Below, in pieces: positions 2,500 through 64,000 of a stretch of 64,000 nt of DNA. The stretch spans positions 22,151-86,150 of the IMG/VR virus record IMGVR_UViG_3300030376_006484; one strand, written 5' to 3'. The notes under the pieces are model-generated. The model worked only from the letters and a program-made list of their open reading frames with translations, was not told the origin of the DNA and did not search any database. The translations under genes and the position numbers were made by a program. The DNA is from a virus. Its lineage: Duplodnaviria; Caudoviricetes. The stretch's first letter is position 1; each line of letters opens with the position of its first letter.

Positions 2500-2990
2500 A
2501 GAAAAAGTATAGCATTATCAAAATACCATTGAAGTAAATAGTACTAGCATTTTTACTACTTAGGTAAGACTAAACACCAATAGTATTTTTTTATGTAAAA
2601 TATTGTTATCTTAATTATTATCATATTATTCTCTATTCGTAAACGAAGCACTGCTCCATAATTCTCATTATTCTCATTTTTCTCTAGGGGTGTCAATTTC
2701 TCGCACCCCATATGAGAATAATGATAAAGATGAGAATTTGAAAAATGCTCTTTAGATATATGATAATAATGATAATATGATAATAATATATTAAAATATA
2801 CTTATTTTCTTCAAAAAGACACTTTTTGCCCATTTATTATTCTCACTTCGGATGAGAATAACATGAGAAACTCAAAATTCCACACATATATGTTATATAC
2901 ATAAGACCAATTGAAAACCTGTAAAACAATATCAAGAAATAACAAACACAATAAAAAGGAGAGTTATGAAGGAAGGATAGATATGTGATT
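2500..2990. other. AT-rich non-coding region with ATGAGAAT/ATTCTCA repeats; candidate replication origin
   Basis: No ORF; lies between divergent units; several copies of the short repeat in both orientations flanking a very AT-rich tract at about 2755-2810. Confidence 0.45.
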
Positions 2991-3097
2991 TAGGTATTAT
3001 GCGTAAGACGCTTTGTAGATGAGCATTAAATACCCTACCATGAATCTTGGTTGTCTTAGCCCACCACACACGGATAGATAAGGAAAAGGTGACGACC

Positions 3098-3622
3098 ATG
3101 ACAAAAGGAAAGAAAAACGAAACAAAAACAAGCGAAGCGGCTCAAGCCGTGGATTATTCAAAATACACCGCCCGATTGGGTGACATTCAAGGAGTCCTTG
3201 AAAAGGCTCCAAACGCCAAACTTCAAATGGCGGTGGATGACATTAATGGGGCTATTGAAGCGCAACTTGATGAGAAATTGTGCATTCAACTAATTGGTGC
3301 ATTGAAAACCTACATTCAACTTGAAGGTGAAGCGGGAGCAATCTACGCCGACGCTATGCCTCAACGACTACGCTCAAGCGACCCACTCGCTCAAGCACAC
3401 TATACACGAATTGATGACGAATTGAACACATTGATGAACGACAACGCACCACTTCTTGAAGTGATGTTTAGTCTAAAAATCGGTATGCGAGTTAAAGAAG
3501 GAGAAGAACCCACCATTGACGACTACCGTTCAACACTACGAAAGAAGAATAGAGCCGTGAACAAATACAACAAAACCACTTCAACTACTGCTCAACCAAC
3601 GGGGGACTCAAGCGAGGCGTGA
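3098..3622 (+). CDS. putative early protein, distant paralog of 6484-6999
   Basis: AAGGTGA RBS before ATG 3098; shared T.RL..L.K..N..MAV.D..D.KL..L.A..T...L.G pattern. Confidence 0.8.
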   Translation: MTKGKKNETKTSEAAQAVDYSKYTARLGDIQGVLEKAPNAKLQMAVDDINGAIEAQLDEKLCIQLIGALKTYIQLEGEAGAIYADAMPQRLRSSDPLAQAHYTRIDDELNTLMNDNAPLLEVMFSLKIGMRVKEGEEPTIDDYRSTLRKKNRAVNKYNKTTSTTAQPTGDSSEA

Positions 3623-3685
3623 AGCCCCGCTAACCCATGAAAATTAACCCTTAAGCCGTGTGTGGTGGGTTAAGGCTCCATTTAT

Positions 3686-3704
3686 GGCCCCCCTTACGGG
3701 GGGC
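3686..3704 (+). terminator. GC hairpin GCCCCCC-TTAC-GGGGGGC
   Basis: Perfect stem downstream of 3098-3622. Confidence 0.55.
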
Positions 3705-3733
3705 TTAAGTGGGGTTGTGTCTTGTCATTACCC

Positions 3734-3777
3734 CAAAGATTATCATTAAGCGACACAACCATATGGTATGTACTTTG
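3734..3777. repeat. palindromic element copy 1 (CAAAG..ACCATATGGT..ACTTTG)
   Basis: Core ACCATATGGT at 3758-3767. Confidence 0.8.
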
Positions 3778-3814
3778 AACATACCCCACTTGAACCAAAT
3801 GAAAATAATAGGCT

Positions 3815-4123
3815 ATGAGAGTAAATTTCAGCCTAGAAGAATTGAATGCAGAAGAAGTAAGAGTAAACTACCAAACTAATTTAAGCGGTAGAGCGATGAA
3901 CATAAGGACGACTTATGTTTATAGTTCCGAAGAAGATTATTGGGCGGCATACGACCTATTAGCAAAGCATAAACTAACTAGTGGATTCCAATTCCACTTT
4001 GACCAACGAAACGACACGAATGCAATAGTGACCGTAACAGAAGTTTCATTAGAATGGTACAGAAAAGAACAAAAACGAAAACAAGAACAGGGGGATTCAC
4101 TGAGTAGTGAAACCAATGAGTAA
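3815..4123 (+). CDS. hypothetical protein
   Basis: 102-aa ORF; first gene after palindrome copy 1. Confidence 0.7.
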   Translation: MRVNFSLEELNAEEVRVNYQTNLSGRAMNIRTTYVYSSEEDYWAAYDLLAKHKLTSGFQFHFDQRNDTNAIVTVTEVSLEWYRKEQKRKQEQGDSLSSETNE

Positions 4124-4229
4124 AATAAACCCATATCTAGACATATGGGATTTTTTTACTGTTGAATCGTCCACTACCCCCACAACTACAAAGACGATAA
4201 CAATTAAAACAATCAAACAAGAGGAATAA
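4116..4229 (+). CDS. hypothetical protein (37 aa)
   Basis: Translated by hand; fills the operon gap. Confidence 0.45.
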   Translation: MSKINPYLDIWDFFTVESSTTPTTTKTITIKTIKQEE

Positions 4230-4231
4230 AA

Positions 4232-4372
4232 ATGTATAAAATAATTAGATTTAGATTTAACGGGCCAAACCGTACAATACAAAGAGGATTAACGCTAGAA
4301 GAAGCACAAGCCCACTGTCAAAGAGAAGATACTCACGGAGACGGTTGGTTTGACGGATATGCGGAGGAATAA
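4232..4372 (+). CDS. small phage-type protein (46 aa, YKIIRF...GLTLEEAQAHC...WFDGY)
   Basis: Translated by hand; GAGG RBS; resembles a small protein I recall from other phages (not searched). Confidence 0.7.
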   Translation: MYKIIRFRFNGPNRTIQRGLTLEEAQAHCQREDTHGDGWFDGYAEE

Positions 4373-4374
4373 AA

Positions 4375-4536
4375 ATGAACAAAAAAATAGAAGCAACACT
4401 ATACAAACTATTAGATTATGTCACTAGGACACTAAGGTATTACAGTATTAATGATGACCATTGGAAGGTAGCACTTAGCCTAACAAGACATACTGCGAGA
4501 GAACTAATCGCATTAGTGGAGAGTGAAGAAGAATGA
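4375..4536 (+). CDS. hypothetical protein (53 aa)
   Basis: GGAGG RBS; ATGA overlap with the next ORF. Confidence 0.6.
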   Translation: MNKKIEATLYKLLDYVTRTLRYYSINDDHWKVALSLTRHTARELIALVESEEE

Positions 4537-4934
4537 CTAGATTTCTAACACACAAAGAATTTATGGAAATGACTGACCATTGGAGTTACACAGAAAAAAT
4601 AGCATTCCTATTAGAGGATAGCGAGGTTTTAGATTCTATTCTAAAACACATAGAATGCTCATGGAATGGTCGCTACACAATCATTAATCGTGAAACTAAT
4701 GAAGCGGAAAAGGAAGACATTTACCATGTTACAAAGGAAGAGGTTAAGATTCAAGAAGAGATGAACAAAAACAAGGAGGTTATGCTCAATGGATTTAAAC
4801 AACAATTGCATAGTTTATATTCCTGCCTTGAACGAGTTGATGATGATGCGGCATTTGAGTGGGCAACGAAGAATGTAGGCGAAGATGATATGTGGATTGT
4901 TAGAGGGACAGGAAGGAGATGGTTGAATGATTAA
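4533..4934 (+). CDS. hypothetical protein
   Basis: 133-aa ORF, translationally coupled. Confidence 0.7.
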   Translation: MTRFLTHKEFMEMTDHWSYTEKIAFLLEDSEVLDSILKHIECSWNGRYTIINRETNEAEKEDIYHVTKEEVKIQEEMNKNKEVMLNGFKQQLHSLYSCLERVDDDAAFEWATKNVGEDDMWIVRGTGRRWLND

Positions 4935-5166
4935 CACAGACAAATACGAAAAATACAAACCCACACAAGCCAACTACCAAACAAGCGAGAGGTACATCAA
5001 GGAACTGCTAACAGAAGTCATGCGGTTGCGTGGGATATTGGGCGACATTATAGCCATAGATGAATGGGGCGGAGATGGTAAAGATGTTGGTATCACCATC
5101 ACATGGTACGGAGATTATACTTTCAGTGGATGGTTAAACAAAGTTTACGATGGGGTGACTGAATGA
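4927..5166 (+). CDS. hypothetical protein
   Basis: 79-aa ORF with GGAG RBS. Confidence 0.65.
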   Translation: MINTDKYEKYKPTQANYQTSERYIKELLTEVMRLRGILGDIIAIDEWGGDGKDVGITITWYGDYTFSGWLNKVYDGVTE

Positions 5167-5390
5167 TTGACACAAACAACAATAGACACAATTTAAAGAT
5201 TAGAATAGAGACAGAGGAATGTGTCTTTGAAGAGTATTGGGAGGCTTAATCTTGGCTGAAATACAGACTCCACAGGGAACTGCGACCCTGTTATATATCG
5301 CAGAAAGTGACGGAAATATTGAGATAGTCTTCTTAATAGACTAATTAATATCCCCTTTAGTCGGCTTTTTAGCCGATTATCGGGGTATCC

Positions 5391-5424
5391 CAAAGTAATA
5401 CCATATGGTTGTACTGATACTTTG
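5391..5424. repeat. palindromic element copy 2
   Basis: CAAAGT-AAT-ACCATATGGT-...-ACTTTG. Confidence 0.8.
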
Positions 5425-5476
5425 ACAGAAGTAAAAAACCCTAAGAGGGGCCATAAGACCCCCCTTAAGATAATTA

Positions 5477-5566
5477 TTAATCCTCTTTAGGATTACAAAC
5501 CTTACAAGATTTTAAACCTACATGACCTGCTAGGTCACACACTTTTGTAACTGATTCTACTCGCAT
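5477..5566 (-). CDS. 29-aa Cys/His micro-protein MRVESVTKVCDLAGHVGLKSCKVCNPKED
   Basis: Translated by hand; AAGGAG RBS; C-x4-H-x5-C-x2-C; hairpin plus T-run downstream. Confidence 0.55.
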   Translation of the reverse strand: MRVESVTKVCDLAGHVGLKSCKVCNPKED

Positions 5567-5823
5567 TTTAATTTCTCCTTATGATATGTTGAATGGGATA
5601 CCCTCACTGACCGCCTTCTTTCTTTAATTGACCATTTGGTGCGCCTGTATTTACTAAGTGTTCTTGGGCTAACATTGTCTAGAATATTGCTTTCTCTCTT
5701 TTGTTCGTACTTCGGTTCTTTAGGTGCTTTCTTCGTCGCTATTGGGTTCTTTTCGGAAGGTGATTAACTAGTACTCGCCTTCTTACACCCAACTAAACTC
5801 TATTCGTTTAGATAAGGTAGCCA

Positions 5824-5852
5824 CAAAGTTACTACCATATGGTTTGGCTTTG
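5824..5852. repeat. palindromic element copy 3
   Basis: CAAAGTTACTACCATATGGTTTGGCTTTG. Confidence 0.85.
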
Positions 5853-5889
5853 ATGAACCCCGAAGGGGGCTTTCGCCTAATATTTTCTC

Positions 5890-6180
5890 TTATTCAACCT
5901 TGATAAGTGAACCGTTCCACAATTCACCATTTAAGAACCATTCAAAATTTTTCTGCACGATATGAACATTAGGAAGGCCGTTCAAGCGTTCCTTTGTGGT
6001 TGTGGTTGCATGTCCTGCCGAAGTAATCAATAAGCCCTCACCTTCAGCATAAAGAGCAATTGTATTTTCAAAAAGCGTAAGGTAGGTTATACCCGACCGT
6101 GTATATACTTCGGTATTCCCTCGCTTGAATTTTTCTCTATTCCTAAAAGCCCGTATTGCGTCCCTTGTTATTTTTCGCAT
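5890..6180 (-). CDS. phage-type hypothetical protein (MRKIT...TTTKERLNGL)
   Basis: GAGGTGA RBS before ATG 6180; resembles a family I recall from phages. Confidence 0.8.
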   Translation of the reverse strand: MRKITRDAIRAFRNREKFKRGNTEVYTRSGITYLTLFENTIALYAEGEGLLITSAGHATTTTKERLNGLPNVHIVQKNFEWFLNGELWNGSLIKVE

Positions 6181-6363
6181 CTTATTCACCTCTATTACTT
6201 TTGCAAATAGCACAATTCTTTAAATTAAACACATGGTTGAATTGGGTGCAGTTAGTCGTAACTATACCATAATATTTAGCCATTATTTTTATTTCTTCAA
6301 TATTTTTCATTTTTATCTCTCCGATTACCTAAATGAATTAGTATTCCTTAGATAGGGTATGAA

Positions 6364-6392
6364 CAAAGTACCTACCATATGGTTGCACTTTG
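6364..6392. repeat. palindromic element copy 4
   Basis: CAAAGTACCTACCATATGGTTGCACTTTG. Confidence 0.85.
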
Positions 6393-6483
6393 ATGCACAC
6401 CTTATGACTCCCATAAAGGGAGCCATAATGGAGCCTAGCGGGGAAGTTAGACTGACTAATAATTTCTAAGGAGCCTTAGCCCC

Positions 6484-6999
6484 TCAGTTGTCCTCCTGTA
6501 CGGTTTCGTTTGATTCGTTAATGTGTGACTCGTAGTTGGTCGTTAGACTTTCCAACTGTCCGTCCCAAACCTTGTTCTTGAAGTCATCTTCAAGTCGGCG
6601 TGTGGTAGAGTTGTAAAGGAAATCAACAAGGGTTTCCTCTGTGTAGTAAATGATGTTCTCTTTGTTCTTCTTTCGGAAAAGATACACTAGAGCGTCGGGG
6701 TTGTGGGTTAGACCTGCGACAACAAAGGAAGTAATGCTGTCCTTAATTGCAGTAAAGGCAGGACTTAGTGCGTTGTTTGCATCTCGCTGTCCCGACTTAG
6801 GCAAGTAATCTGCGTACCCATGAAGGGTTGCAGTAGTACGACAAGCCGCATACAATGATGCTCGTAGTTTGTCGTCAATTGTGGTTAAAAGACAGTCCTC
6901 AACGGCCATTACGACTCGTTGGTTTGCATCCTTACCTTCTTTCTTCAATTGAGCCGATAGTGGCTCTAGTCTGTTCGTTATTCGTTCTAAATTTGACAT
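6484..6999 (-). CDS. putative early protein, distant paralog of 3098-3622
   Basis: AAGGTGA RBS; similar length (171 vs 174 aa) and N-terminal motif pattern. Confidence 0.8.
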   Translation of the reverse strand: MSNLERITNRLEPLSAQLKKEGKDANQRVVMAVEDCLLTTIDDKLRASLYAACRTTATLHGYADYLPKSGQRDANNALSPAFTAIKDSITSFVVAGLTHNPDALVYLFRKKNKENIIYYTEETLVDFLYNSTTRRLEDDFKNKVWDGQLESLTTNYESHINESNETVQEDN

Positions 7000-7076
7000 G
7001 ATATTTCACCTTCCGTCTGTGCTAACTTCCCCGTTAGACACCCAAGTAATCGTATACTATTCATAGGGTTGTAGCC

Positions 7077-7101
7077 CAAAGTACTACAACCATATGCTTT
7101 G
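7077..7101. repeat. palindromic element copy 5 (degenerate)
   Basis: CAAAGTACTACAACCATATGCTTTG. Confidence 0.7.
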
Positions 7102-7292
7102 CATCCAATTTTTATTTTTATTTATTACTGTTTTACGGTATTAAAAGTACTATTTCCGGTAATAAACGGCCTATTTGCATACTATTAATACTATTTTAGT
7201 AATACTATTACCACTATTCGGGGTAGTTTCGCCCCCGTACAATTTGGGTTAAGGTTATATCTTGATGGCCTCTGCGTCTATTTAGTGACGGC

Positions 7293-7499: not shown

Positions 7500-7607
7500 A
7501 ATAAATAGTATTAATTTTATCCTGTAAATACATTAAATAGTAATAAAAAAGGCGGTATAGTGATAAAAAAATTCGGCGTAATTTTTGAAATATTTTTAGG
7601 TGGTATT

Positions 7608-7862
7608 ATGTGGAAAGACGAGATTAAAAAACAGGACTATAATGAAGACGACTTCTTTATGACGGAAGAAGCAGTTGAGGGGAAAGTTGGAGAAAAAATA
7701 CAGGAAATGTATAGTATGGCGGAAGAACTATCTAAAATGCAGAACATTTTGAGTAGCCCTGACTTTCAACGAGGTTTTCCAAAGTATTCATTGAAAGAAA
7801 TTGAGAAGGCTGTAAAGGGGTTAGGTATGGCCGTTAGTGTTATGGAGAGTTTTCCTTCGTGA
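7608..7862 (+). CDS. W-leader protein (MWKDEIKK)
   Basis: AGGTGG RBS before ATG 7608. Confidence 0.7.
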   Translation: MWKDEIKKQDYNEDDFFMTEEAVEGKVGEKIQEMYSMAEELSKMQNILSSPDFQRGFPKYSLKEIEKAVKGLGMAVSVMESFPS

Positions 7863-7892
7863 GCAAAATTATGAGAAATTTTAGGTGATATT

Positions 7893-8156
7893 ATGACATG
7901 GAAAAACAACATTAGAAAAGAAAGTCCTTTGGATGAAAGAGCAGGTTTAGCCGATAACGAAGGTAGAGAAGTTCCTCCAACAGAAGAAGACAAAGAGGTT
8001 CATTCCTACTTAAATGAGATATTAGGAGAATTATCAAGAGAAATGCGTGACATTCCTGTAAGATTTTCAGGAGATAGTGACTTATTAGAAGAGGCTATTA
8101 AACATATTGAAAGGGCTATTTATGCTATTCAAAGAGCCAAAAGAAGGATGAGGTGA
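7893..8156 (+). CDS. W-leader protein (MTWKNNIRK)
   Basis: AGGTGA RBS; leader motif. Confidence 0.75.
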   Translation: MTWKNNIRKESPLDERAGLADNEGREVPPTEEDKEVHSYLNEILGELSREMRDIPVRFSGDSDLLEEAIKHIERAIYAIQRAKRRMR

Positions 8157-8161
8157 TTATT

Positions 8162-8428
8162 ATGACTTGGAAAGATGAAATACAGAAAGAAATGCCTAAA
8201 GGAGAAGGCGGAAAACATAAGCGTATGGGAGAATTATTGGGCGGTATGGGTATGAGAATTACTTTTGATGCTATTACCCAAAAAGAACGACACTACAAAA
8301 GAATAAAAAGTGACGAGGCACAAACTTTGTCTAATTTTTTAAATGAGGCTAAAGATGCCGCATTAGAACTAATAATGAAAATTAATGATGCAAATAAATA
8401 TTATGAAGTAAATAAAGATGCGCTTTGA
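8162..8428 (+). CDS. W-leader protein (MTWKDEIQK)
   Basis: GAGGTGA RBS; leader motif. Confidence 0.75.
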   Translation: MTWKDEIQKEMPKGEGGKHKRMGELLGGMGMRITFDAITQKERHYKRIKSDEAQTLSNFLNEAKDAALELIMKINDANKYYEVNKDAL

Positions 8429-8448
8429 TAGAAAAAAAGGTGATTATT

Positions 8449-8598
8449 ATGACATGGAAAGATAGGATTAAGAAGAAGGAAAGCGAATGTCCCGAATGCG
8501 GTAAGAAAAAAGATTTGGAATTTAGAATTCTTTCAAGAGACAATTACGGTGTAATGTGTAAAGACTGTTATCGTGACAAATCAGTAGCAGGTAAGTGA
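8449..8598 (+). CDS. W-leader zinc-finger protein (49 aa, MTWKDRIKK..CPEC..CKDC)
   Basis: Translated by hand (absent from the ORF track); AGGTGA RBS. Confidence 0.7.
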   Translation: MTWKDRIKKKESECPECGKKKDLEFRILSRDNYGVMCKDCYRDKSVAGK

Positions 8599-8607
8599 GG
8601 TATTCTT

Positions 8608-9564
8608 ATGTTTAGGCTTTTCTTCTCAATAGATGGTGGTAATTTTGCCCCTATTGGAGAAAGTGAAAAGTCACGATTAAGGGCTAGAAATATGGTTGCT
8701 GATATTTCTAGAACGCTTGGTTATTCTTTTAAAGGCGATGAATTCAAAGGTAGTCTTGTTAATGATGAGTCTACAATTTTATATGAAATTAGAGAGAAGG
8801 AATCCGAAGATAAGTGGAAGGATATACTCAAGAGTCGTAAGATAACAGACCCTAGAGCAAGGCGAAAGGATGATGGGAATACTACTAACTTTGGTTGGTC
8901 TACACCTGCTTTTGCAACTAAAGAAGAAATACAGAGGCGAAATGCTCCTTCTGTTTCTAAAGAAGAAATACTAGCCATTGTTGATAGTTACACTGAAGCC
9001 CTTATTTTTCCATTAGTCAAGGAAGCAACTTTGCCTATAATTGAAAAATACAGTGATAGGGATAAGGGCTATGACGACGAGTACGGTGCAGATGGATTGG
9101 AATATTTTGCAATAGCATTAAAGAATTGGTCATACCATCCTGAGAGGGTTTCTAAAGATATTAAATCATTAAATGATAAAGACTATCGTTTATTTTTAAA
9201 TGAGTTACAGAAAGAATTCAAAAATATTCGTAATTTGTCTGTTTATATGGGGCCGGAAGACGGTTATGACATGGAAACCGAAACTTATCTTGGTTCAAAG
9301 GGTAGACGCTCCGAAAGTGCTACTTGGTTTGAAAGGTTTAGAAGTGTATTGAAGGATGATGAGTATTTTATTAACGAATCGTCATACGAGACTGTTGATG
9401 AGTATTGGGAAGATAGAGGAATAACGGCTGATAGAGTTTTGGCTGAATTAAATTCTGCTTTGAATAAGGTTAAATCTTCTTTGCAAGGTAAAGGTTTATT
9501 CAATAATGCTAAGAAAATATTTGGAGATTACAGTAGAAAGATAGTTAGGGGTGAGAAAAAATGA
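8608..9564 (+). CDS. hypothetical protein with internal KWKDILKS motif
   Basis: 318-aa ORF with RBS. Confidence 0.8.
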   Translation: MFRLFFSIDGGNFAPIGESEKSRLRARNMVADISRTLGYSFKGDEFKGSLVNDESTILYEIREKESEDKWKDILKSRKITDPRARRKDDGNTTNFGWSTPAFATKEEIQRRNAPSVSKEEILAIVDSYTEALIFPLVKEATLPIIEKYSDRDKGYDDEYGADGLEYFAIALKNWSYHPERVSKDIKSLNDKDYRLFLNELQKEFKNIRNLSVYMGPEDGYDMETETYLGSKGRRSESATWFERFRSVLKDDEYFINESSYETVDEYWEDRGITADRVLAELNSALNKVKSSLQGKGLFNNAKKIFGDYSRKIVRGEKK

Positions 9565-9797
9565 GTTGGAGAGATGACTTGGCCCGTGATGGTATAACTT
9601 TGGTAATTAAGAGGCAACTTTTTGAAATTTTAGGTAATCAGCCGGAAATTACTGCTAGAGGCATTGAAGAAGCCTTGTATGGTCGTGGTCATAAGAGGGT
9701 AAATATGTCAAAAATTAAAAAATTTGTGGCTAAGACTCCCGAAATACGACTTAACGAAAAATATAGTGAGACTAACACCTATTCATTGGAGAAGTGA
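9561..9797 (+). CDS. small putative winged-HTH protein
   Basis: ITARGIEEAL helix pattern; GGTGA RBS. Confidence 0.6.
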   Translation: MSWRDDLARDGITLVIKRQLFEILGNQPEITARGIEEALYGRGHKRVNMSKIKKFVAKTPEIRLNEKYSETNTYSLEK

Positions 9798-9802
9798 ATA
9801 GA

Positions 9803-10267
9803 ATGTGGTTTGATATTATTAAATCGGTTGAAATTTTGACCGAAAATTCGGCTAGTAAGATGTTAGACGGGTTTAAGACTGCGGTTGAGAAGGGTTATCC
9901 TGCAATTATTACTCCTTTATCGCTTGTTGCTAAGATTCAAGATGGCGAATTGGCCGCTTTTACCTCTTTTAACGATATGGGGAAGTTTTTCTTTGTTGGA
10001 AATAGTTTGACTAATCCAAAATACAAGGGTCGGGGTTATTTTACTCAAATTTTGGCTTCTAGAGATGAATATACTAAGGGAAAACCTAGAATTACTTTGC
10101 TAAATCCTTTGGATGCTAAGTCTAGGGGCATTGTTAGGGCGGTTGTTACCAAAAAAGGTGGTAAGGAAGTGACTTCTTATGCTGATGTTCAAGATATTAT
10201 GGATGAGCAGACCTACAAAGGGATGAAAAGCACTAATTTAGATATGTTTAGGTACAAGGTGATTTGA
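9803..10267 (+). CDS. W-leader GNAT-like acetyltransferase (MWFDIIKS)
   Basis: Acetyl-CoA-binding motif A-like TNPKYKGRGYF. Confidence 0.6.
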   Translation: MWFDIIKSVEILTENSASKMLDGFKTAVEKGYPAIITPLSLVAKIQDGELAAFTSFNDMGKFFFVGNSLTNPKYKGRGYFTQILASRDEYTKGKPRITLLNPLDAKSRGIVRAVVTKKGGKEVTSYADVQDIMDEQTYKGMKSTNLDMFRYKVI

Positions 10268-10458
10268 TGACATGGAAAAACATACTCAAAATTAGTACCG
10301 AAGAGGCAATTCAAGATGCTGAGAGGTATGCAGACCCCGAAGATACTGAAATGGAAAAGGTAGCAGGTGCGGTAACTACATCAAGTGCGGCCCATTCCCT
10401 TCTATTTAGGCCGACCTTTGGCGGTAAGCGAAGGAAGCGCAAAAAGAAGGAGGATTGA
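10267..10458 (+). CDS. W-leader protein with basic C-terminus (MTWKNILK)
   Basis: AGGTGA RBS; ends KRRKRKKKED. Confidence 0.7.
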   Translation: MTWKNILKISTEEAIQDAERYADPEDTEMEKVAGAVTTSSAAHSLLFRPTFGGKRRKRKKKED

Positions 10459-15526: not shown

Positions 15527-18043
15527 ATGGCTATACAAAAAAAGGTAAGATTAGACCAAGAAGCCTTTGATTCTTTGAATCTAACAGAAGAAGAGGTAAT
15601 GGATGCCTTGTCCGGTGAACCTTTACAAGAGTACGAAAGGACAGGTGATGTTAGAATAGCACGAAAAGGTGTTAGAGATGTACTTTTGCCTATTCTAGAA
15701 AAGAGAATACAGGACATGGGTATTGAATCTAATGAGAAGGGTAAGTCCTTAGTTGCTCTAACAATGTCAAAGGTCACAAGTATTCTAACTAGGGGTAGGT
15801 TAGAGGGTTTGTTAGATAAGGATGAGAATACAAAGGTCAAAGATAGAAGGGTATATCAAAGCCTCATTAATAGATTATACAGTGGGATTCTCTACGAAGA
15901 TAGAAAATTAGAAGTAGAGGACTTTATTACAGGTATTGATTCTACAAAGATTTCAAGGAACCCAAAAAGAGATAGAATTACTTCTACTTACTTAAATAAT
16001 CTAATAAATAGAGAATTGGAAGGTAAAAATAGGGATGCTGCTTCTGTTTGGTTTGATTCCCATTCTTCTAGTCACAAGGCAATAGAAGACGGTTTGATTG
16101 CATTTAACAATCAACAAAGTGCTAAAAGAAGAGAAGGCATTTCTCCCGTAGTAGTAATTAGAGATGACATTCTAACTTTCATGGGTTCTACTTCAAAGAA
16201 GATTTTGGATAGGAAAGATACTATTTACAACACTTGGAAACAAATTGAAGGTAGATTTGACGGTGTTAAAAAACAATCGGAGATAGTGAAGAAACAATTT
16301 GGTTTAGAAGACAATCACCCCTTTGCTAAGGCAACGGCTGATTTAGAAAATTATGTTGTGGAGTATTCTCCTGTTTCAGTAAAAAGAGCAAATCCTAAAT
16401 TGGTTGCTCTTGATTTGTTGGATGCTTTTATGAAAAGGTCGGGAAGAAATGTTTTTGAAACGGACACTACAGTTACTATAGATTCTGTAGGGATGCCGAC
16501 TGTAGAAGAAGGAACCATGAGCATGACTGATAAAACAGATGAGCAGAACCAAATAACTAGGAAGGAAATGGAAGCGGCCAACAAAGGCTTAGGGGTTGCA
16601 GTAGACCCTATTTCTAGATACTACATGAATAAAATGTTGGGGGGTGCTTTTATGGATGAAAGGCACTTTGAAGAAATTACCGAGTTACTCAAAGATTATT
16701 CTAAGAGAATTAGTTTCGGTAAGCGTGATTATGAAAATCTAGATAAATTCATTTCCGATATTCCCAAAATTGCCGGTGCTAATACTGACACAGTGTTTTT
16801 GCCTATTCACTTCTCAAGAGGGTTCTTGGATGCAGGGGATAATAAAATGGATTCTAAGATAGACCCAATAAACAAAATATGGCGAGAGTATTTTATGGCT
16901 TTAGGTGGACTAATTGAGCAGGGCTACAGAATGCCTAAGAAAACAAAACAAACATCAAACATTGGAACAATCGGCGAAGAGGTTAAAGAGACAGGGGCGA
17001 AATTAACTCTAAATACCTATGTGGCTCAATTTCAAGGAAGGCCCATGAATTTTAAAGAAACAAGTAAAGAACAGGCAGATGCACTAAAAGAATTATTTGT
17101 TCGCTTAGAGTTGTATATGTTTAGTCCACTATCAAACCCCTTTATTACGCTAGGGTATAATTTTAAAGACATTAAGAAAACCTCAAGTTACAAAATCATG
17201 TCTGTTTATGCCGATAGAAATAATGTTTTGGAAGGAGAACTAACACAGGATGAAAACAAAAATTGGGTATTTGCAGGACAACCTTTTGAAAGTAAAGCAG
17301 AAGCCGAAACTGCAAGGTCAAAGGGTTCAACTAATTCCACTAAGGCTATCTCTACATTATACCAACTTCTTGATAAAAAAGGGGGTAGCATGATTACCAA
17401 TAAACAAATAAAAATCATTGAAGAATTTTTAGAATCCCTTCGGGTTAATGTTGAGGTTGAAAGTGTCAAAAGACAGACTAACAAACTATACAAATTCGTA
17501 ATAAAAAGGCTATACAAAAAAGCAGGTAAGGGTTTCTTAGACCGAGCAAGAGAAGGTCTAGGGAGACTTGTTGCTTCTGTATTCAATAAAATTAATGAAA
17601 CAGGTAGCGTAACTACACTAGGAGTAGATAGTGCAGACTTCAAAGGCGAAGACTATGACATTGATGATGTAGTGGCGTTATTGGAATTGAAAGATTTCTT
17701 AGCAGAAAACGCAGATAGGCTAAACAATAAAAAGAAAGCAGAAACACTAGTAGGGAAATTCAACCAAATATCTAAGGCTAATCCTATCAAAAACAAAATC
17801 TTGCAAGCACATGATTCCTTTAGAATACTGAAAGGCTTGCCTATCTATTATGGTAAAGGGCAAACGGATTCAGTAGAAGACATTTCTAAAATGATTGATG
17901 TTGTTTATGATAAAATGGGTATTCATATAGTTGGTAATGAGATTGTTAAGATGGTGGAAGAGGTTGATTCATTCACTTCTATTGCTACTAATGTTGGTGT
18001 GACAGAAGAAGTTGTCTACTTTGTCAAGGCTAACTTTAGGTGA
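15527..18043 (+). CDS. large hypothetical protein (possible internal virion protein)
   Basis: 838-aa ORF with AGGTG RBS. Confidence 0.75.
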   Translation: MAIQKKVRLDQEAFDSLNLTEEEVMDALSGEPLQEYERTGDVRIARKGVRDVLLPILEKRIQDMGIESNEKGKSLVALTMSKVTSILTRGRLEGLLDKDENTKVKDRRVYQSLINRLYSGILYEDRKLEVEDFITGIDSTKISRNPKRDRITSTYLNNLINRELEGKNRDAASVWFDSHSSSHKAIEDGLIAFNNQQSAKRREGISPVVVIRDDILTFMGSTSKKILDRKDTIYNTWKQIEGRFDGVKKQSEIVKKQFGLEDNHPFAKATADLENYVVEYSPVSVKRANPKLVALDLLDAFMKRSGRNVFETDTTVTIDSVGMPTVEEGTMSMTDKTDEQNQITRKEMEAANKGLGVAVDPISRYYMNKMLGGAFMDERHFEEITELLKDYSKRISFGKRDYENLDKFISDIPKIAGANTDTVFLPIHFSRGFLDAGDNKMDSKIDPINKIWREYFMALGGLIEQGYRMPKKTKQTSNIGTIGEEVKETGAKLTLNTYVAQFQGRPMNFKETSKEQADALKELFVRLELYMFSPLSNPFITLGYNFKDIKKTSSYKIMSVYADRNNVLEGELTQDENKNWVFAGQPFESKAEAETARSKGSTNSTKAISTLYQLLDKKGGSMITNKQIKIIEEFLESLRVNVEVESVKRQTNKLYKFVIKRLYKKAGKGFLDRAREGLGRLVASVFNKINETGSVTTLGVDSADFKGEDYDIDDVVALLELKDFLAENADRLNNKKKAETLVGKFNQISKANPIKNKILQAHDSFRILKGLPIYYGKGQTDSVEDISKMIDVVYDKMGIHIVGNEIVKMVEEVDSFTSIATNVGVTEEVVYFVKANFR

Positions 18044-28026: not shown

Positions 28027-30495
28027 ATGCCCTCTACAGGTTTAACTATCGGGAAAGTCAAAGCCCCCGTTTCCGACGAAATACTACATCTGTTTGAGAA
28101 GGTTAGAGTATCTTATCTATCTGCAAAGGAAGATAAGAAAGAATACGGTGGTCGTTGGAGAAACACACTAGAAGAAATAAGCGAAGCATTTGATTCAATT
28201 TCTCCTTTGGGTAAAGAAATTAATGTTTTCTTAGACGAAAGGCATTTAGAAGATAATGATTCTAAAGACCCCGAAAGCACTACTGCTAGAATTATTTACG
28301 AAGCCATTAAAGATATGCGTTTCAAATCGGAAGAAGTAGAAGACCCCTTCGCTGACCGATTCAAAGGTAATGTGTTAGAAGCATTACTATCCGATGTTGG
28401 TACAATGGTCAAATTTATTCATTATGCTATTCGTTCCGATGAGAAAGCCTTACCTGCTGATTTCTACAAATCTAAAGAATTACAAGAAGATGAAATTACT
28501 GATGGATTGGAAGGACTTGATTTAGTAGTTGATGATGTTCCTTTGTTTATCATTGAGCATTATGGTGACGATAAGGATTCTAAGAAGGTGGAAGCACAAT
28601 TCAAAAAAGCAAATAAGATACTAGAAGAAATGATGCTATCAAATTCTTCGGAAGAAGATTTAGAAGAATTAGTAGAGGTTGATTTAGAAAAGGCCGAGAA
28701 AACTGAAAAGGCATCTTCTCAATTTATTGTTCCTAACAAACCCATGTACCGAATCTTTGACATTGATGACATGAATGAATTGAAAGGGTTTAGTGGAGAA
28801 TATGTTGTCCAAGAAAAATATGATGGTATGCGAATACAGATTCATAAAATAGATGACAAAATCAAAATCTACTCCTATAATGAAAAGGACATTACAGACA
28901 AGTGTTCCGAACAGGTCAAGGAATTACAGAAAAAGGCATACGGTGATTGTATCCTTGATGCTGAGTTAATTTTGTTTGATGGAGAGAAAGCCCTCCATAG
29001 GGCAGATACAATAGCCCATGTTTTCAAGAATAAGTACAAAGAGGCTAGACTAAGAGCGCATGTTTTTGATATTATGAGACATGAGGCTCAAAACCTTACA
29101 GAAGAACCCCTAAGAGATAGAATCAACATACTGTTCAACAATTATTCTTCCAAGTCTTCTTCGGATTTGGTTTACCCTTCAAAGAAAGATACTCGCATTG
29201 CTGACTCTCTAAAAGATATAGCAGAATACGCAGAAGAGATTATGGAAATGCCTACTTCGGAAGGAGTAGTCATTAAAGATATTGAATCCACTTACTTTAT
29301 TGGTACTAAGAAAAACCCCAAGTGGGTTAAGTGGAAGAAGTTTGTAGATTTAGATATGGTCGTTCTAGACAAGAAATCTACTAAGTCCGGTCTTTACTCT
29401 TACACTTTAGGAGCAGGGCCAGTTGATGATGAGGACGAAGGTAAGCACATTGTTGAACAGAACGATAGAAAATACATGAATGTTGGTAAGGCACTTAATA
29501 CTAAGATTAATGCAAAGGTCGGCCAAATTATTAGAGTCAAAGTAGATGAGGTAAGAGAGGATAATGGTAGGTTTACTCTTTACTCGGCTAAGGTTATTGA
29601 AATACCCGAAGTTGAATTACCCGACAAAATAGTAACTTTACAAATGCTTTCTCAAGATACTAAACCTAGTATTAAATACAAAACTATGGCTTTGAAAAAA
29701 GGAATAACAATCAGTGATGGAATTCACGGCACTGCAACTTTGATTGCTAAAAGCATGGATGGCTTTACTTTGTACGGATTTAAAGAAACTAATCTTATGG
29801 CTAAGAATGCAATTCATGATTTAGATATGTGGAAAAAGGAAGCAGAAGAAACTATGAAAAGTCTACAATCGGAAATATATGTGGGAGTTATCAATCTAAT
29901 AAAAAGAAAGGGGCCACAACCAATAACAGAGGTACATGACTTCTTGATTAGGAATTATGGTAGCCAATACGAAACAGTATTAGAAAGCGATAAGAAAGAA
30001 CTACCCGATTGGTTGAACCGTAGGGAAGACATATCAATATCCAACGGTAAGGTTTCAATTGACGATTCTAAAATAATTAAAGAGAAGCCTTCTCAATTTA
30101 AAATTTATTTGAGAAAGGACGGCAACCTTAATTTTTCAGTACAGCATAAAGAAGAATTATTGATGTGGACTATTGATTTAGAAACTGATGATGATATATT
30201 CGCATTGTTTGGTAAAGCAGTAAAGTATCCTGCGGAAATATCCGAGCAACAAGATACTCATAAATTAATAGACGAAGGAGATGTAGAGGTAGGTGTTCAA
30301 AGGCATGGATACCATGAGTACATTTTAGACGGTAATAAGTTTGAGACTAAATTACATTTCCGAGTAGTAGATATTAAGGATAAGGAAAGTTGGGTTGCTT
30401 GGACAGGATATGAGCAAAAACCTGTAGATAAAGATACAGACGAAGGCGTTTGGAATATCTATGAAGATAAGTACAAAACTCTAAAATTAGAATAA
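28027..30495 (+). CDS. lig: ATP-dependent DNA ligase with N- and C-terminal extensions
   Basis: Motif I QEKYDGMR, III LDAE, IIIa VFDI, IV EGVVIK, V WVKWKK; OB-like domain. Confidence 0.9.
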   Translation: MPSTGLTIGKVKAPVSDEILHLFEKVRVSYLSAKEDKKEYGGRWRNTLEEISEAFDSISPLGKEINVFLDERHLEDNDSKDPESTTARIIYEAIKDMRFKSEEVEDPFADRFKGNVLEALLSDVGTMVKFIHYAIRSDEKALPADFYKSKELQEDEITDGLEGLDLVVDDVPLFIIEHYGDDKDSKKVEAQFKKANKILEEMMLSNSSEEDLEELVEVDLEKAEKTEKASSQFIVPNKPMYRIFDIDDMNELKGFSGEYVVQEKYDGMRIQIHKIDDKIKIYSYNEKDITDKCSEQVKELQKKAYGDCILDAELILFDGEKALHRADTIAHVFKNKYKEARLRAHVFDIMRHEAQNLTEEPLRDRINILFNNYSSKSSSDLVYPSKKDTRIADSLKDIAEYAEEIMEMPTSEGVVIKDIESTYFIGTKKNPKWVKWKKFVDLDMVVLDKKSTKSGLYSYTLGAGPVDDEDEGKHIVEQNDRKYMNVGKALNTKINAKVGQIIRVKVDEVREDNGRFTLYSAKVIEIPEVELPDKIVTLQMLSQDTKPSIKYKTMALKKGITISDGIHGTATLIAKSMDGFTLYGFKETNLMAKNAIHDLDMWKKEAEETMKSLQSEIYVGVINLIKRKGPQPITEVHDFLIRNYGSQYETVLESDKKELPDWLNRREDISISNGKVSIDDSKIIKEKPSQFKIYLRKDGNLNFSVQHKEELLMWTIDLETDDDIFALFGKAVKYPAEISEQQDTHKLIDEGDVEVGVQRHGYHEYILDGNKFETKLHFRVVDIKDKESWVAWTGYEQKPVDKDTDEGVWNIYEDKYKTLKLE

Positions 30496-54597: not shown

Positions 54598-54753
54598 GTG
54601 AGCCTATTAGTTTATTTTTTTGCCGCCTTTATTTTGGGATTTGTTACTGTTTGGTTGGCTACTCCGCCATCAACTGATACTTTCATAATTTTTGAAAGTG
54701 GGGAAGAATTAGATGAAATGTGTTGGGGCGGTCTAAGGAGAGGCCAACCATGA
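54598..54753 (+). CDS. small membrane protein (about 51 aa)
   Basis: Translated by hand; hydrophobic N-terminus; ATGA overlap with the lyase. Confidence 0.45.
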   Translation: MSLLVYFFAAFILGFVTVWLATPPSTDTFIIFESGEELDEMCWGGLRRGQP

Positions 54754-55598
54754 AAATTAGAATTGTAGAAGTTTCTCCTAGAGATGGTCTACAATCGCTA
54801 GAAACATTTGTTCCTACAGAAGTCAAAAGAAATTTGATTAACTCTCTTTATAGTGCGGGTTTCTCTCATGTAGAAGAAACAAGTTTTGCTCATCCTAAAT
54901 TCGTACCACAAATGGCTGACGCAGAGCAAGTGTACCAGAAAGGTTCTGTTTTAGTTATGAATAATAGAGGTTTTATTAGGGCTAAAAAAATAGGAGTAGA
55001 GAAAATTAATATTGTTTTCTCTCCTTGTGAAACATTTAACATAAATAATATGGGTAAAACTAGAAACGAAATAGTATTGATGTATAAAACATTCATGGAT
55101 AAAGTACCAAAAGAAAATGTTAGGGTCTATTTATCTATGGCTTTTGGTAGTCCTTACAGTGGTTCCTTTTCCCCGACTACAATTCGTTCTTGTATTAGAG
55201 ATGCTAAGATGTTTGGAAACACTGTAGTATTTTCCGACACTGTGGGTATAGGAACAAGAAATGAAGTCGCTTTATTTGCTGAAATGGCTTTAGAAGAAGG
55301 GGTGATTCCCGCCCTACATTTACACCATAAAGGAGAAGAAGAAATGGCTATATCTTTAGTTAGAGCAGGATTATTTGCAGGAATAAAAGAATTTGATAGT
55401 AGTATAGGGGGCTTAGGTGGTTGTCCTTTCGTTGAAGGTAGTGGCGGGAATTTATCTACCGAAACCCTTGTAGGTCATTTAGAAGCATGGGGGTTTGATT
55501 GTGGAGTAAAAATAGAGCAATTAGACCCTGCTAAAAAAATCGCCCAATCCATAAAAAATGCCCAAAATGAAAAAAAGGGCCGCATGACTCACCCCTAA
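54750..55598 (+). CDS. hmgL: hydroxymethylglutaryl-CoA lyase (DRE-TIM family)
   Basis: EVSPRDGLQ, VPQMADA, SDTVG, HLHH, FDSSIGGLGGCPF..GNLSTE. Confidence 0.88.
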   Translation: MKIRIVEVSPRDGLQSLETFVPTEVKRNLINSLYSAGFSHVEETSFAHPKFVPQMADAEQVYQKGSVLVMNNRGFIRAKKIGVEKINIVFSPCETFNINNMGKTRNEIVLMYKTFMDKVPKENVRVYLSMAFGSPYSGSFSPTTIRSCIRDAKMFGNTVVFSDTVGIGTRNEVALFAEMALEEGVIPALHLHHKGEEEMAISLVRAGLFAGIKEFDSSIGGLGGCPFVEGSGGNLSTETLVGHLEAWGFDCGVKIEQLDPAKKIAQSIKNAQNEKKGRMTHP

Positions 55599-61913: not shown

Positions 61914-62819
61914 TTACCACCAATCCGATAGTTTCTTTTCTTTAGTTTTTATGCTCGCAGTGTCCCATTCCATCGCTTTGTAGACGGGTTCTGCTTTCTT
62001 AATTACTTGGTCTGCATAATGTGACCAATCGGGAGAATATTCTCTTATTTCGTCAAAGGTTCTCCCTGCAACATAGGTCGCCTCTACTTGTTTTCCTGTT
62101 AGCGGGTTAGTATAATGTCCTGCCGGTTTGCACTTAATGAAAACATAAGAATCAATATTAGTGGGTAGATTTAGTTTTTCTACTCCGAATAATATTGCCG
62201 AATTACCTGCTCCGAATACCGGCTTCTTACCCTCTTTAGTGGTGAAGGTTGTAAACTCAGCCGCACACTTAGAACAGAAATTTGTTCTCTTACCTTCTGT
62301 AAATTTGTGCTTCTTCTGTAAATCAAAAACCGAATATCCCTTACCGCAAGAACATTTTACCTTAAAGCGTTCTTCCTTAAACCGACTTCTTTTGACAATA
62401 GATTCAAAATCTATTTCCCCTTTCAGTACAGTAGAATACTTTTGATGTAGGTATTCGTTTATTTCTTCAAAGGAACATTGGTCTACCCACATTCTAAGAA
62501 CAGTGCTTTGAATATCTCTAGCAAAACCTGTTTCGGAAATTTTCTTAGCAGTAAATCCTGTCATTACAAACTTAGGTTCGTCCAACCAAACACCATCTAG
62601 CCAAGATACAAGCCCTACATTTCGGTTCTTAGTAGTCCCTACTCCTAAACTAGAATAGAATTTCTCAAACTCCAATACTACAGGGTGTTGTTCTAGACCA
62701 AGTACATTAGGAAAAGATTCTCTAACATGGTCGTTAATTTCTTCTATTGCTACCTTTGCTTTTTCTACTGAATCGCATTTGATATAAATAGAATCTGTGT
62801 GTCCATAAACTACTTTCAC
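61914..62819 (-). CDS. polB: family B DNA polymerase, C-terminal part (motif C and thumb)
   Basis: VVYGHTDSIY, LEFEK, KNRNVG, DWSHY..QV; GTG start after AAGGTGA. Confidence 0.88.
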   Translation of the reverse strand: MKVVYGHTDSIYIKCDSVEKAKVAIEEINDHVRESFPNVLGLEQHPVVLEFEKFYSSLGVGTTKNRNVGLVSWLDGVWLDEPKFVMTGFTAKKISETGFARDIQSTVLRMWVDQCSFEEINEYLHQKYSTVLKGEIDFESIVKRSRFKEERFKVKCSCGKGYSVFDLQKKHKFTEGKRTNFCSKCAAEFTTFTTKEGKKPVFGAGNSAILFGVEKLNLPTNIDSYVFIKCKPAGHYTNPLTGKQVEATYVAGRTFDEIREYSPDWSHYADQVIKKAEPVYKAMEWDTASIKTKEKKLSDWW

Positions 62820-63238
62820 TTAATCACCTTCTGTAAAACACCTAATGATAATATATAATTAATGAACTCATTAGAGCGTTCATTAATGCCTATTGTTGAA
62901 ATGTAGTTTGCGTTTGTTTGTGCTATTGCAGTCGTGGCGAATCTTTTTTCTCTTTCACTTTCACGAATCCATACATGTTCTAGCACACGAATTTTTTCGC
63001 TTAGATATTCTACGGTAAGGAAGCCTATGGTTTCCAATACACCTTCATGACCGGAATCATAATGCTCTTGATTCTCCCAAGTTTCTTTATAGATGAAATA
63101 GAAATCGTCTTCGCAGAAATGTTGTATTACTTGTTCCTTGAGAAAATACTCTTTCCATTCTTCGTATAGGTCAATAAATGCTATTAGGTGGTGACCATCC
63201 TCACAGTTTGCTTTTCTAATAAAAACTTCTTCAATCAT
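62816..63238 (-). CDS. GNAT-like protein inserted within polB
   Basis: IGFL, LEHVWIRESEREKRFATT motif A-like. Confidence 0.55.
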   Translation of the reverse strand: MIEEVFIRKANCEDGHHLIAFIDLYEEWKEYFLKEQVIQHFCEDDFYFIYKETWENQEHYDSGHEGVLETIGFLTVEYLSEKIRVLEHVWIRESEREKRFATTAIAQTNANYISTIGINERSNEFINYILSLGVLQKVIK

Positions 63239-63741
63239 ACTTCCACCATCCTTTTATGCAAGTCACCGTTTAATAAATTCCAAAAATCAAAGCAGGAAAT
63301 ACGACTTAAGGCATCTTCTTCGGGTAATTTACCATTTTCTTTAAAGATAGTTGTTACGAATCCCTTCCTATTGGGTTTCGCTGAACGAATTAATCTATCT
63401 AAAATTAGGAACCGATTATAGGCATCTAATCCATATGTTGAAGAGTATGCTCCTTTAGTATAAAACTCTCTTTTTAACTCCATCCACAAATTATATTCCC
63501 CTCCTTCTAAGTATTCACTTTCTACATGACATACCTTACACAATAAATGTAAATTCTCCATCTCATTAGAACCATCATTTTGTAGTGCGATAATATGTGC
63601 GGCATCTACTATAACATCTTCAATTCCACAAGCCATGCAGGTGTACCTATCTACATTGTGAAATTTAGCGATTTTAACTTTAGAGGGTTTTCTTAACCCC
63701 CTTGAGCAGGTTTTTTTGGTTGGGTTATTATTCATAGTCAT
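63235..63741 (-). CDS. HNH endonuclease inserted within polB
   Basis: CMACG, AHIIAL..DGSNEMENLHLLCKVCH. Confidence 0.85.
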   Translation of the reverse strand: MTMNNNPTKKTCSRGLRKPSKVKIAKFHNVDRYTCMACGIEDVIVDAAHIIALQNDGSNEMENLHLLCKVCHVESEYLEGGEYNLWMELKREFYTKGAYSSTYGLDAYNRFLILDRLIRSAKPNRKGFVTTIFKENGKLPEEDALSRISCFDFWNLLNGDLHKRMVEV

Positions 63742-64000
63742 ACTTCCATCTCCCTTGCCTTAAATGCGGCTAATCTAATTGCTTCTCTTGCGCTCGCAGT
63801 AATGCTAGCGGCTAGGTCTTTGTTACTCCAACCGAACCCTCTAAAAGCAAGGATTCCGTAGAATGAAGCCATCAATCTCTTGACGGCCATTTGGTTGTTA
63901 TTCCACTTGACATATTCTTCTTTATCGTCACCGTCTCTAGCAACCTTCATCTTCTTCTTGTAGTCGTTTCTCAAGTCCTTGAGAGCCAACAAAGAGCGAG
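63738..64000 (-). CDS. polB: family B DNA polymerase, N-terminal part (partial, ends after motif B)
   Basis: QMAVKRLMASFYG (motif B), LAASITASARE; frame open to the window edge. Confidence 0.85.
   Translation of the reverse strand, partial: RSLLALKDLRNDYKKKMKVARDGDDKEEYVKWNNNQMAVKRLMASFYGILAFRGFGWSNKDLAASITASAREAIRLAAFKAREMEV

Follow-up and report, generated by a model that had tools for sequence, protein, structure and literature searches.

Two small genes of a tailed virus raise the question of why the sequence just ahead of each gene is complementary to the sequence just behind it. They lie in a window of 64,000 nucleotides (nt), comprising bases 22151-86150 of the 86,150-bp virus record IMGVR_UViG_3300030376_006484, and are referred to here as gene A and gene B, at locus A and locus B. 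The element under study, a long helix that would join the 5' and 3' untranslated regions (UTRs) of one messenger RNA (mRNA), is termed a panhandle. The answer that we tentatively favor, with a chance judged somewhat short of even, is an end-paired, closed-loop mRNA that would be nuclease resistant and yet translatable. The parts on which the argument rests, including the two open reading frames (ORFs), are as follows.

7022..7044, minus strand: 5' arm of locus B (core 7039-7022; optional outer UGGG at 7044-7041; transcription would start at about 7039-7044).
6484..6999, minus strand: ORF B, 171 amino acids; its product is predicted to be mainly helical and belongs to a small family specific to viruses.
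6429..6450, minus strand: 3' arm of locus B (core 6450-6433; optional UCCA at 6432-6429).
3053..3073, plus strand: 5' arm of locus A, 21 nt, from the sequence, the repeat search, and the folds.
3098..3622, plus strand: ORF A, 174 amino acids, a paralog of B by profile comparison.
3656..3712, plus strand: 3' arm of locus A (3656-3676) followed by hairpin P2 (to about 3712).

On the minus strand of locus B, GTCTAACGGGGAAGTTAG (7039-7022) was complementary to CTAACTTCCCCGCTAGGC (6450-6433) over 18 positions, with 16 Watson-Crick pairs, a U.G pair at position 2, and an A.C mismatch at position 6. A preliminary description had reported this pairing, with its one G-U and one mismatch; it was read again in the sequence, and a repeat search independently listed it as I21 (21 nt, 86%), along with the locus A pair as I19 (19 nt, 95%). 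At locus A, 3053-3073 pairs with 3656-3676 on the plus strand to give 21 bp, two G.U pairs included. The further claim that the two loci share their outer ends around unrelated inner stems was also borne out in the sequence. Both carry CTTGG[G/T]TGTCT 5' of the gene and, 3' of it, AGGCTCCAT(T)TATGGC with a hairpin; the stems of A and B are unrelated in sequence, and the layout is the same.

The energies of duplexes between upstream and downstream flanks were compared for the 132 ORFs of at least 80 amino acids in the 86-kb genome. The two panhandle loci ranked first and second (-46.1 and -41.2 kcal/mol), followed by -37.0 for the next best and a median of -21.5. When the complete units (652 and 668 nt) were folded, the helix was kept in both the minimum free energy (MFE) and the centroid structure at both loci, with z-scores of -5.75 (B) and -5.29 (A) over 20 shuffles each. 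Because the duplex energies were the strongest among the 132 ORFs and the full-length folds kept the helix, end pairing at these two loci exceeds chance. Eight other ORF flank pairs, including those of neighboring cassette genes, gave patchy duplexes only, and the panhandle does not appear to be common to all cassettes.

Scans with family alignments found 5 viral and 40 metagenomic B-type loci and 4 A-type loci, all from marine metagenomes. The compiled B-type loci (n = 43), with the two window loci, provided 30 distinct flank pairs of sufficient length, which reduced to 23 distinct arm pairs. Every one of these had a core helix no shorter than 15 bp, with 504 Watson-Crick and 56 G.U pairs in sum; its length was 15 to 22 bp with few interruptions, consisting of single mismatches and 1x0, 0x1, 0x2, 2x0, 2x1, 1x2, and 2x2 loops. 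The stems fell into at least nine groups of unrelated sequence, and the helix foot (G-C, U.G, C-G) was conserved. All four A-type loci also carried the helix (L053 to L055 at 35 to 43% identity and L052 at 93%). Recurrence of the flanks around other homologs was one of two points on which the preliminary description had staked its proposal, and the layout accompanied every homolog with sufficient flank (23/23 arm pairs and 4/4 A-type loci).

Twelve rows could be aligned in register for analysis of covariation, giving 216 cells (row L027, shifted by one column, was left in). Standard pairs made up 94.9% of the cells, against 83.3 ± 1.7% after shuffling, with none of 500 shuffles reaching the observed value. 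Changes on both sides were observed in 7 of the 18 pairs, amounting to 27 cells where 9.9 were expected, and pairing fell to 31 to 47% when the partner was slid by 1 to 3 columns. Among 18 representatives, cognate flanks had a mean duplex energy of -43.8 kcal/mol versus -27.0 (standard deviation, 8.1) for noncognate flanks. The unit combines 5'/3'-UTR pairing and covariation, as in UTR-paired mRNAs, with flanking double-stranded RNA of about two turns, as in RNase III processing stems. No Rfam family matched at the gathering score in the 64 kb, and an Rfam search of 2900-7200 returned one chance-level microRNA match (E 0.98).

The enclosed proteins had been described as weakly alike. By BLASTP they were not significantly similar (E 3.4), and each had its own set of relatives; comparison of the two family profiles with hhalign gave 86.9% probability (E 4.1e-6) over 100 columns, so the likeness is real. 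A joint A/B profile retrieved A types, B types, and intermediates between them, in 19 clusters at E ≤0.001 among 1.84 billion representatives. On this profile evidence, A and B are homologous, which was the second point of the preliminary description, and form a tiny family. They matched no family in Pfam, PHROG, or NCBIfam, and tblastn against 50,697 phage records gave no match, in keeping with the original proposal of a conserved protein-plus-structured-RNA unit that could not be assigned to a known family. The AlphaFold model of protein B (15-row alignment; predicted local distance difference test [pLDDT], 80.1; predicted template modeling score, 0.47) consisted mostly of helices, together with a small strand hairpin and an acidic tail. 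Foldseek found nothing at E ≤0.001 in PDB or BFVD. The best VIA-align hits (Z 6.7) were generic helical bundles covering residues 1 to 67 only, and the best ESM Atlas score was 0.90 with 127 shared features, which is below kinship level.

In four other viral contigs, one from a 95%-identical relative and three at 35 to 60% protein identity, A and B likewise converge at a distance of 2 to 4 kb, and the pair is therefore old. The predicted A-B complex scored 0.60, against 0.00 for the best of three controls, with contact agreement of at least 94% between runs and partner pLDDT of at least 73. Of 80 solved complexes, 58 pass the mark applied to such scores, as do 2 of 110 mismatched pairs; both of these mismatches, but only 7 of the 80 solved complexes, scored 0.60 or less. 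Binding of A to B is therefore weakly predicted by modeling, a lead rather than a finding.

Several observations bear on whether the arms act in RNA. The U.G pair at position 2 was retained in 11 of the 12 alignment rows. Over the 23 helices, 56 G.U pairs were counted against 5 single A.C or C.A mismatches, a count that is biased because the helices were called on the coding strand; in a symmetric test, the sense duplex was stronger than the antisense duplex in 18 of 27 loci. The conserved U.G and the G.U excess point to RNA of the coding strand, and the strand test adds modest support, so that the evidence is supportive but not overwhelming. The arms invariably lie between a promoter-like box and the ribosome-binding site on one side and just past the stop codon on the other. 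Each arm sequence occurs once per genome, as a pair, and family scans detected neither a transposase nor a recombinase family within the cassette or next to it.

A series of smaller elements surrounds the arms. At locus B, these are the following.

7067..7096, minus strand: upstream element, a half palindrome CATATGG and then hairpin P0, from sequence and motif counts.
7091-7084 / 7074-7067, minus strand: stem of P0, GGTTGTAG/CTACAACC, with loop TACTTTGGG.
7061..7068, minus strand: TATA-like box CCCTATGA, 29 nt ahead of the first paired G of the helix, a putative promoter.
7006..7014, minus strand: Shine-Dalgarno-like GGAAGGTGA, 6 nt ahead of the ATG and beyond the main helix.
6466..6487, minus strand: stop-codon hairpin CUGAGGGGC-UAAG-GCUCCUUAG, in the MFE and centroid structures.
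6400..6432, minus strand: hairpin P2, UUAUGGCUCCC / GGGAGUCAUAA, with a CC..GG base, directly after the 3' arm.
6374..6401, minus strand: hairpin P3 (loop CAAAG) and then the palindrome ACCATATGGT (6383-6374), from covariation and a motif count.

Upstream of the helix, the order is (AC)CATATGG, hairpin P0 (loop ACTTTGG), and then CCCTAT(A/G/T)N. The motif CATATGG..CTTTG occurs five times where 0.10 would be expected by chance, and the P0 stems vary in sequence between copies with their complementarity kept. On the 3' side, P2 begins one nucleotide past the 3' arm; its stem is variable among homologs, and its base, CCYUUA..UUAAGG, is conserved. P3 has eight pairs, three of them with changes on both sides, and uses G.U on the sense strand. 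It was the only structure recovered by RNAalifold from a MAFFT alignment of 18 3' UTRs, in which the P2 stems are too divergent for sequence alignment. At locus A, a long hairpin follows P2 and leads to ACCATATGGT at 3758-3767.

In fold and duplex predictions, the main helix stops 8 to 25 nt short of the ribosome-binding site, which lies outside the helix together with the start codon in all loci; the Shine-Dalgarno sequence is thus predicted to be free. At the other end of the gene, the 3' strand of the stop-codon hairpin is C/U rich and anti-Shine-Dalgarno-like, and homologs have analogous hairpins of other sequences. Most B-type loci carry a C/U-rich, CUCC-like motif just past the stop codon. 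In many loci, although not in every one, this motif is predicted to pair optionally with GGAG on the inner side of the helix, in competition with the stop-codon hairpin.

By hand count, CCCTAT lay 29 to 31 nt from the first paired G in all 17 distinct B-type loci, with an unconserved spacer, and 16 of the 17 had a pyrimidine at -1 and a G at +1. The archaeal TATA box is centered near -26. This spacing corresponds to archaeal TATA/initiator geometry, from which we infer that transcription starts at the helix foot. The 274-residue TFIIB-like protein of the virus could serve such signals (see below).

On the favored interpretation, each of the paralogous genes would be made as a self-contained mRNA whose 5' and 3' UTRs pair in a helix of 16 to 22 bp and loop the message. 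Transcription would begin at the helix foot, 29 to 31 nt past the TATA-like CCCTAT box, and the 5' terminus would therefore be buried in duplex RNA. The 3' arm would lead directly into the stable hairpin P2 and then P3, capping the other end. This would shield the 5' end from 5'-3' exonucleases and keep the exosome away from the 3' end, while the ribosome-binding site, start codon, and stop codon, lying just inside the loop, would stay accessible to ribosomes. Stop and start sites would be held near each other, which could favor reinitiation. The purpose would be a long-lived, well-translated message for a small helical protein pair needed in quantity; A and B are probably important, strongly expressed early products.

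A number of observations weigh against this interpretation. The spacing in A-type loci is 20 to 26 nt, not 29 to 31, with an AT-rich box (TTAAATAC in the window) about 27 nt upstream. CCCTAT is unlike the classical AT-rich archaeal TATA box and shows no genome-wide enrichment (36 seen, 34 expected). P0, which lies upstream of the proposed start, covaries and uses a sense-strand U.G, suggesting that some transcripts may start further upstream or read through, in which case a longer precursor could contain the helix within it. The gap between sense and antisense duplexes is modest (means of -43.3 and -38.8 kcal/mol), and 9 of the 27 loci do not favor the sense strand. The cognate 3' flank was the single best partner in just 8 of 18 rows, since close relatives share stems and the flank of a relative was elsewhere as good or better, and the 95% relative L004 has two unpaired helix positions. 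The stabilizing effect is purely an inference.

Contigs from RNA libraries covered 6520-7013, 6800-7026, and 6587-6902 over gene B and 3352-3595 over gene A, with a further 35-nt piece at 4916-4950 that had unlike flanks. They came from small shares of four sequencing runs, two of which were only guessed to be RNA, and the uncovered parts are not interpretable. Their position on both genes is in favor of the closed-loop interpretation; as assembled contigs, they cannot show starts, ends, abundance, or expression level, which counts against it.

The alternative that survives best, unlikely in our estimation yet a real possibility, is that the helix is a processing or excision stem. The gene would then be the first cistron of a longer precursor, released at the helix by a structure- or double-strand-specific endonuclease. 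The length of the helix and its placement around a whole functional unit resemble the processing stems of ribosomal RNA (rRNA). The P3-ACCAUAUGGU-P0 elements between neighboring genes look intercistronic, both hairpins having sense-strand G.U pairs, and A and B each stand as the first gene past an AT-rich region, in two converging strings of genes. The substrate of the archaeal splicing endonuclease, the bulge-helix-bulge motif, consists of two 3-nt bulges on opposite strands with a 4-bp helix between them. It was absent from the 23 helices, in which there was no 3-nt bulge and loops did not exceed 2 nt per side, and the full-length folds agree. None of 102 viral ORFs scanned (26 + 76) matched RNase III in Pfam. 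No joints and no back-joined or skipping contigs were found among the RNA-library contigs, which are a poor test. Since P2 begins one nucleotide past the 3' arm, its 3' end would lie beside the 5' end of the helix in a nick-like geometry, and the paired ends might be ligated into a circular mRNA. The virus does encode a second, 822-residue ligase-like nucleotidyltransferase, but its best matches are DNA ligases; archaeal ligases have been reported to circularize RNAs with paired ends (PMC9014305).

It appears improbable that the panhandle is a translational switch, in which end pairing would keep the mRNA inactive or delayed until 3' trimming or refolding, as in hok or icaR. Duplex predictions do allow the CUCC-like motif to pair with the GGAG ribosome-binding site and extend the panhandle inward, and the same motif can alternatively enter the stop-codon hairpin, giving two exclusive structures. 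Fold-back inhibition in hok is a precedent, and icaR (PMC3868564) is another. However, the conserved main helix itself leaves the initiation signals uncovered in every locus, the full-length fold of B pairs the C/U-rich motif with the stop-codon region rather than the ribosome-binding site, and some groups (L029 to L031) do not have the motif. Moreover, the 171-residue product is predicted to be soluble and helical, not a small membrane toxin.

A further reading, which we regard as very doubtful, is a circular, translatable mRNA for which the panhandle would be a self-templating device. Transcription would again start at the helix foot, and the 3' end would be trimmed to the end of P2. P2 would stack on the helix so that its 3'-OH faced the 5' end across a nick-like junction, which would be sealed by a candidate host RtcB or Rnl or by the viral 822-residue ligase-like enzyme. 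If its ends were indeed ligated, a prokaryotic virus would here provide the first natural example of a circular protein-coding mRNA.

Hardly credible is a purely DNA-level inverted repeat (the termini of a mobile cassette, an invertible segment, or single-stranded DNA hairpins in replication or recombination, with no RNA role): inverted repeats and ACCATATGGT palindromes confined to the cassette region do bracket the gene, the paralogs are oppositely oriented, and an AT-rich repeat zone, possibly a replication origin, adjoins them, but the arms differ wholly between paralogs and lineages with their position and the A/B order kept in the four other contigs, which argues against recent mobility, and the retained U.G, the coding-strand G.U pairs outnumbering A.C mismatches, the invariable placement of the arms relative to the gene signals, their single occurrence per genome, and the lack of a transposase or recombinase family by the cassette do not describe a transposon or miniature inverted-repeat transposable element.

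Two further candidates were tried and rejected. A virion RNA polymerase acting at hairpin promoters was considered for the 2117-residue protein, which matched only a tail protein family. A tRNA-like 3' end was considered for GGC-U-CCA, which occurs in the two window loci only and not in other groups; ARAGORN found no tRNA.

The end-closing helix can be set beside several known systems. In the hok mRNA, the 3' end is folded onto the 5' end, and the product is a membrane toxin of about 50 residues with an antisense RNA partner (a type I toxin-antitoxin system). The panhandle is like hok in that the two ends of a full-length mRNA pair to give a compact, stable molecule; unlike hok, it encloses a gene for a predicted helical soluble protein of 171 to 174 residues, with no antisense RNA evident. 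As in archaeal rRNA processing stems and bulge-helix-bulge introns (see PMC7714728), the flanks of a unit pair at a distance of hundreds of nucleotides, in an archaeal host. Unlike those, the 23 helices do not contain the splicing motif, and the enclosed unit is an ORF with its own ribosome-binding site.

The closest parallel is the Bacillus subtilis hbs mRNA, in which a 14-bp interaction of the 5' and 3' UTRs modulates cleavage by RNase Y (Braun, Durand and Condon 2017, PMC5737220). Both cases involve long-range UTR pairing within one mRNA for a small protein, and hbs is monocistronic, with ribonuclease access controlled while translation continues. The hbs pairing is bacterial and overlaps the RNase Y site in a structured leader, whereas the helix described here is 16 to 22 bp long, lies at the proposed 5' terminus, and has a stacked 3' hairpin after it; it comes from an archaeal virus and shows covariation throughout a gene family. 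In Staphylococcus aureus icaR, pairing of the 3' UTR with the Shine-Dalgarno sequence blocks initiation and makes an RNase III substrate (Ruiz de los Mozos et al. 2013, PMC3868564); that pairing covers the ribosome-binding site, whereas the main helix of the panhandle lies upstream of it and leaves it free. In haloarchaea, both UTRs are jointly needed for translational control (Brenneis and Soppa 2009, PMC2636863), and no defined covarying helix is noted in the part of that paper considered. The present case, unlike the haloarchaeal one, concerns a virus of marine Poseidoniales-type hosts, with the pairing evidenced directly in the sequence.

The principle of 5'/3'-UTR pairing is therefore known from a handful of single bacterial genes. 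What we judge to be new is the combination of a family-wide covarying helix, its place at the proposed transcript terminus of an archaeal virus gene pair, and conserved promoter-like and 3' hairpin modules. No earlier description of such a design is known for archaeal viruses: the words promoter, repeat, and palindrome were absent from the first magrovirus paper (PMC5434244), and no item with the term "archaeal virus" was among the matches listed for literature on long-range UTR pairing and mRNA stability.

The palindrome ACCATATGGT has just four sites in the 86 kb (3758-3767, 5400-5409, 5834-5843, and 6374-6383), with a half-site at 7090-7096. The copies are flanked on both sides by hairpins with mirror-image loops (CAAAG/CTTTG) and covarying stems. 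These sites split the region into cassettes and have the look of bidirectional modules for promotion, termination, or processing of transcripts.

The cassette at 5410-5840 (minus strand), between two of the palindromes, has no ORF of at least 50 amino acids; by eye, an ORF of about 29 amino acids with a GGAG site is present. It begins with TTGGGTGT, a 5' motif like those of A and B; at its other end, a GC hairpin precedes a run of six T, with no complementary 3' arm seen by eye. It may encode a small protein or a noncoding RNA. In the loci L005, L006, and L007, the region downstream of the B homolog contains ACCATATGG and then TCATAGGGTTGG, the reverse complement of CAACCCTATGA, which lies after P0 and upstream of the gene; the cassette of these loci is thus bounded by another pair of inverted motifs outside the first.

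Gene content fits published magroviruses and places the virus among them as a magrovirus-like archaeal tailed virus. Terminase, portal, prohead protease, and an HK97-type capsid protein are encoded, and the sole relatives of the capsid protein in phage databases were from Haloarcula tailed viruses and from others assigned to methanogen-related archaea. The genome further encodes an RFC-like clamp loader, an ERCC4 nuclease, and two ATP-dependent ligase-like proteins. Magroviruses are viruses of marine group II archaea, of which groups B, B1, and C have GroEL and group B has a split polymerase (PMC5434244). The relatives of the viral chaperonin are named GroEL by their sources; it is GroEL-type and therefore cannot single out a host. 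Three genes of the wider genome are given below.

61914-63992, minus strand: split family B DNA polymerase, in segments 61914-62819 and 63738-63992, interrupted by a 140-residue ORF and an HNH endonuclease ORF (63235-63741).
G000 bases 15600-16424 (= L051:4600-5424), minus strand: TFIIB-like protein of 274 residues (NCBIfam PRK00423, E 6.6e-14, 51.7 bits, under the curated cut-off).
28027-30495, plus strand: ligase-type nucleotidyltransferase of 822 residues, inside the structural gene block (domain at residues ~210-450; DNA_ligase_A_M, E 8e-30).

The TFIIB-like protein also matched the Pfam TFIIB repeat (E 3e-4), and a viral transcription factor B of this kind could steer the host RNA polymerase onto the virus's own promoter modules. 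For the 822-residue protein, the best PDB matches were DNA ligase 1; its N- and C-terminal parts are long and unmatched, and no OB domain was detected in it. A canonical DNA ligase of 509 residues is encoded separately, at L050:8756-10285.

Other features of the window were noted in passing. In the AT-rich stretch at 2580-2900, inverted and direct repeats are nested (ATGAGAATAATGATAA-like units; I1, I7, and I17); the stretch separates the leftward replication genes from the cassette region and is a candidate replication origin. From 7560 to 10458 (plus strand), at least six successive small ORFs have M(T/S)W(K/R)(D/N) at or near their start and then a short basic or acidic stretch (MWKDEIKK, MTWKNNIRKE, MTWKDEIQKE, MTWKDRIKKKE, MSWRDDLARD, and MMTWKNILK), and KWKDILK sits within the 318-residue ORF (8608-9564). 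These may be an array of paralogs or share a common N-terminal signal. The tail gene block ends with a gene at 54720-55598 (plus strand) for an HMGL-like protein (aldolase/lyase TIM barrel; Pfam E 3.8e-20), which may be an auxiliary metabolic gene.

End pairing appears to define an entire gene family of the magroviruses, which are abundant and uncultured, and is deeply conserved in that family. The unit would provide a sequence-defined, easily mutated model for mRNA protection, processing, or translational control in archaea, for which few worked examples exist. The ACCATATGGT/hairpin modules, together with the viral TFIIB-like gene, may offer a first handle on the transcription signals of magroviruses, and the panhandle flags the unknown proteins A and B as probably important.

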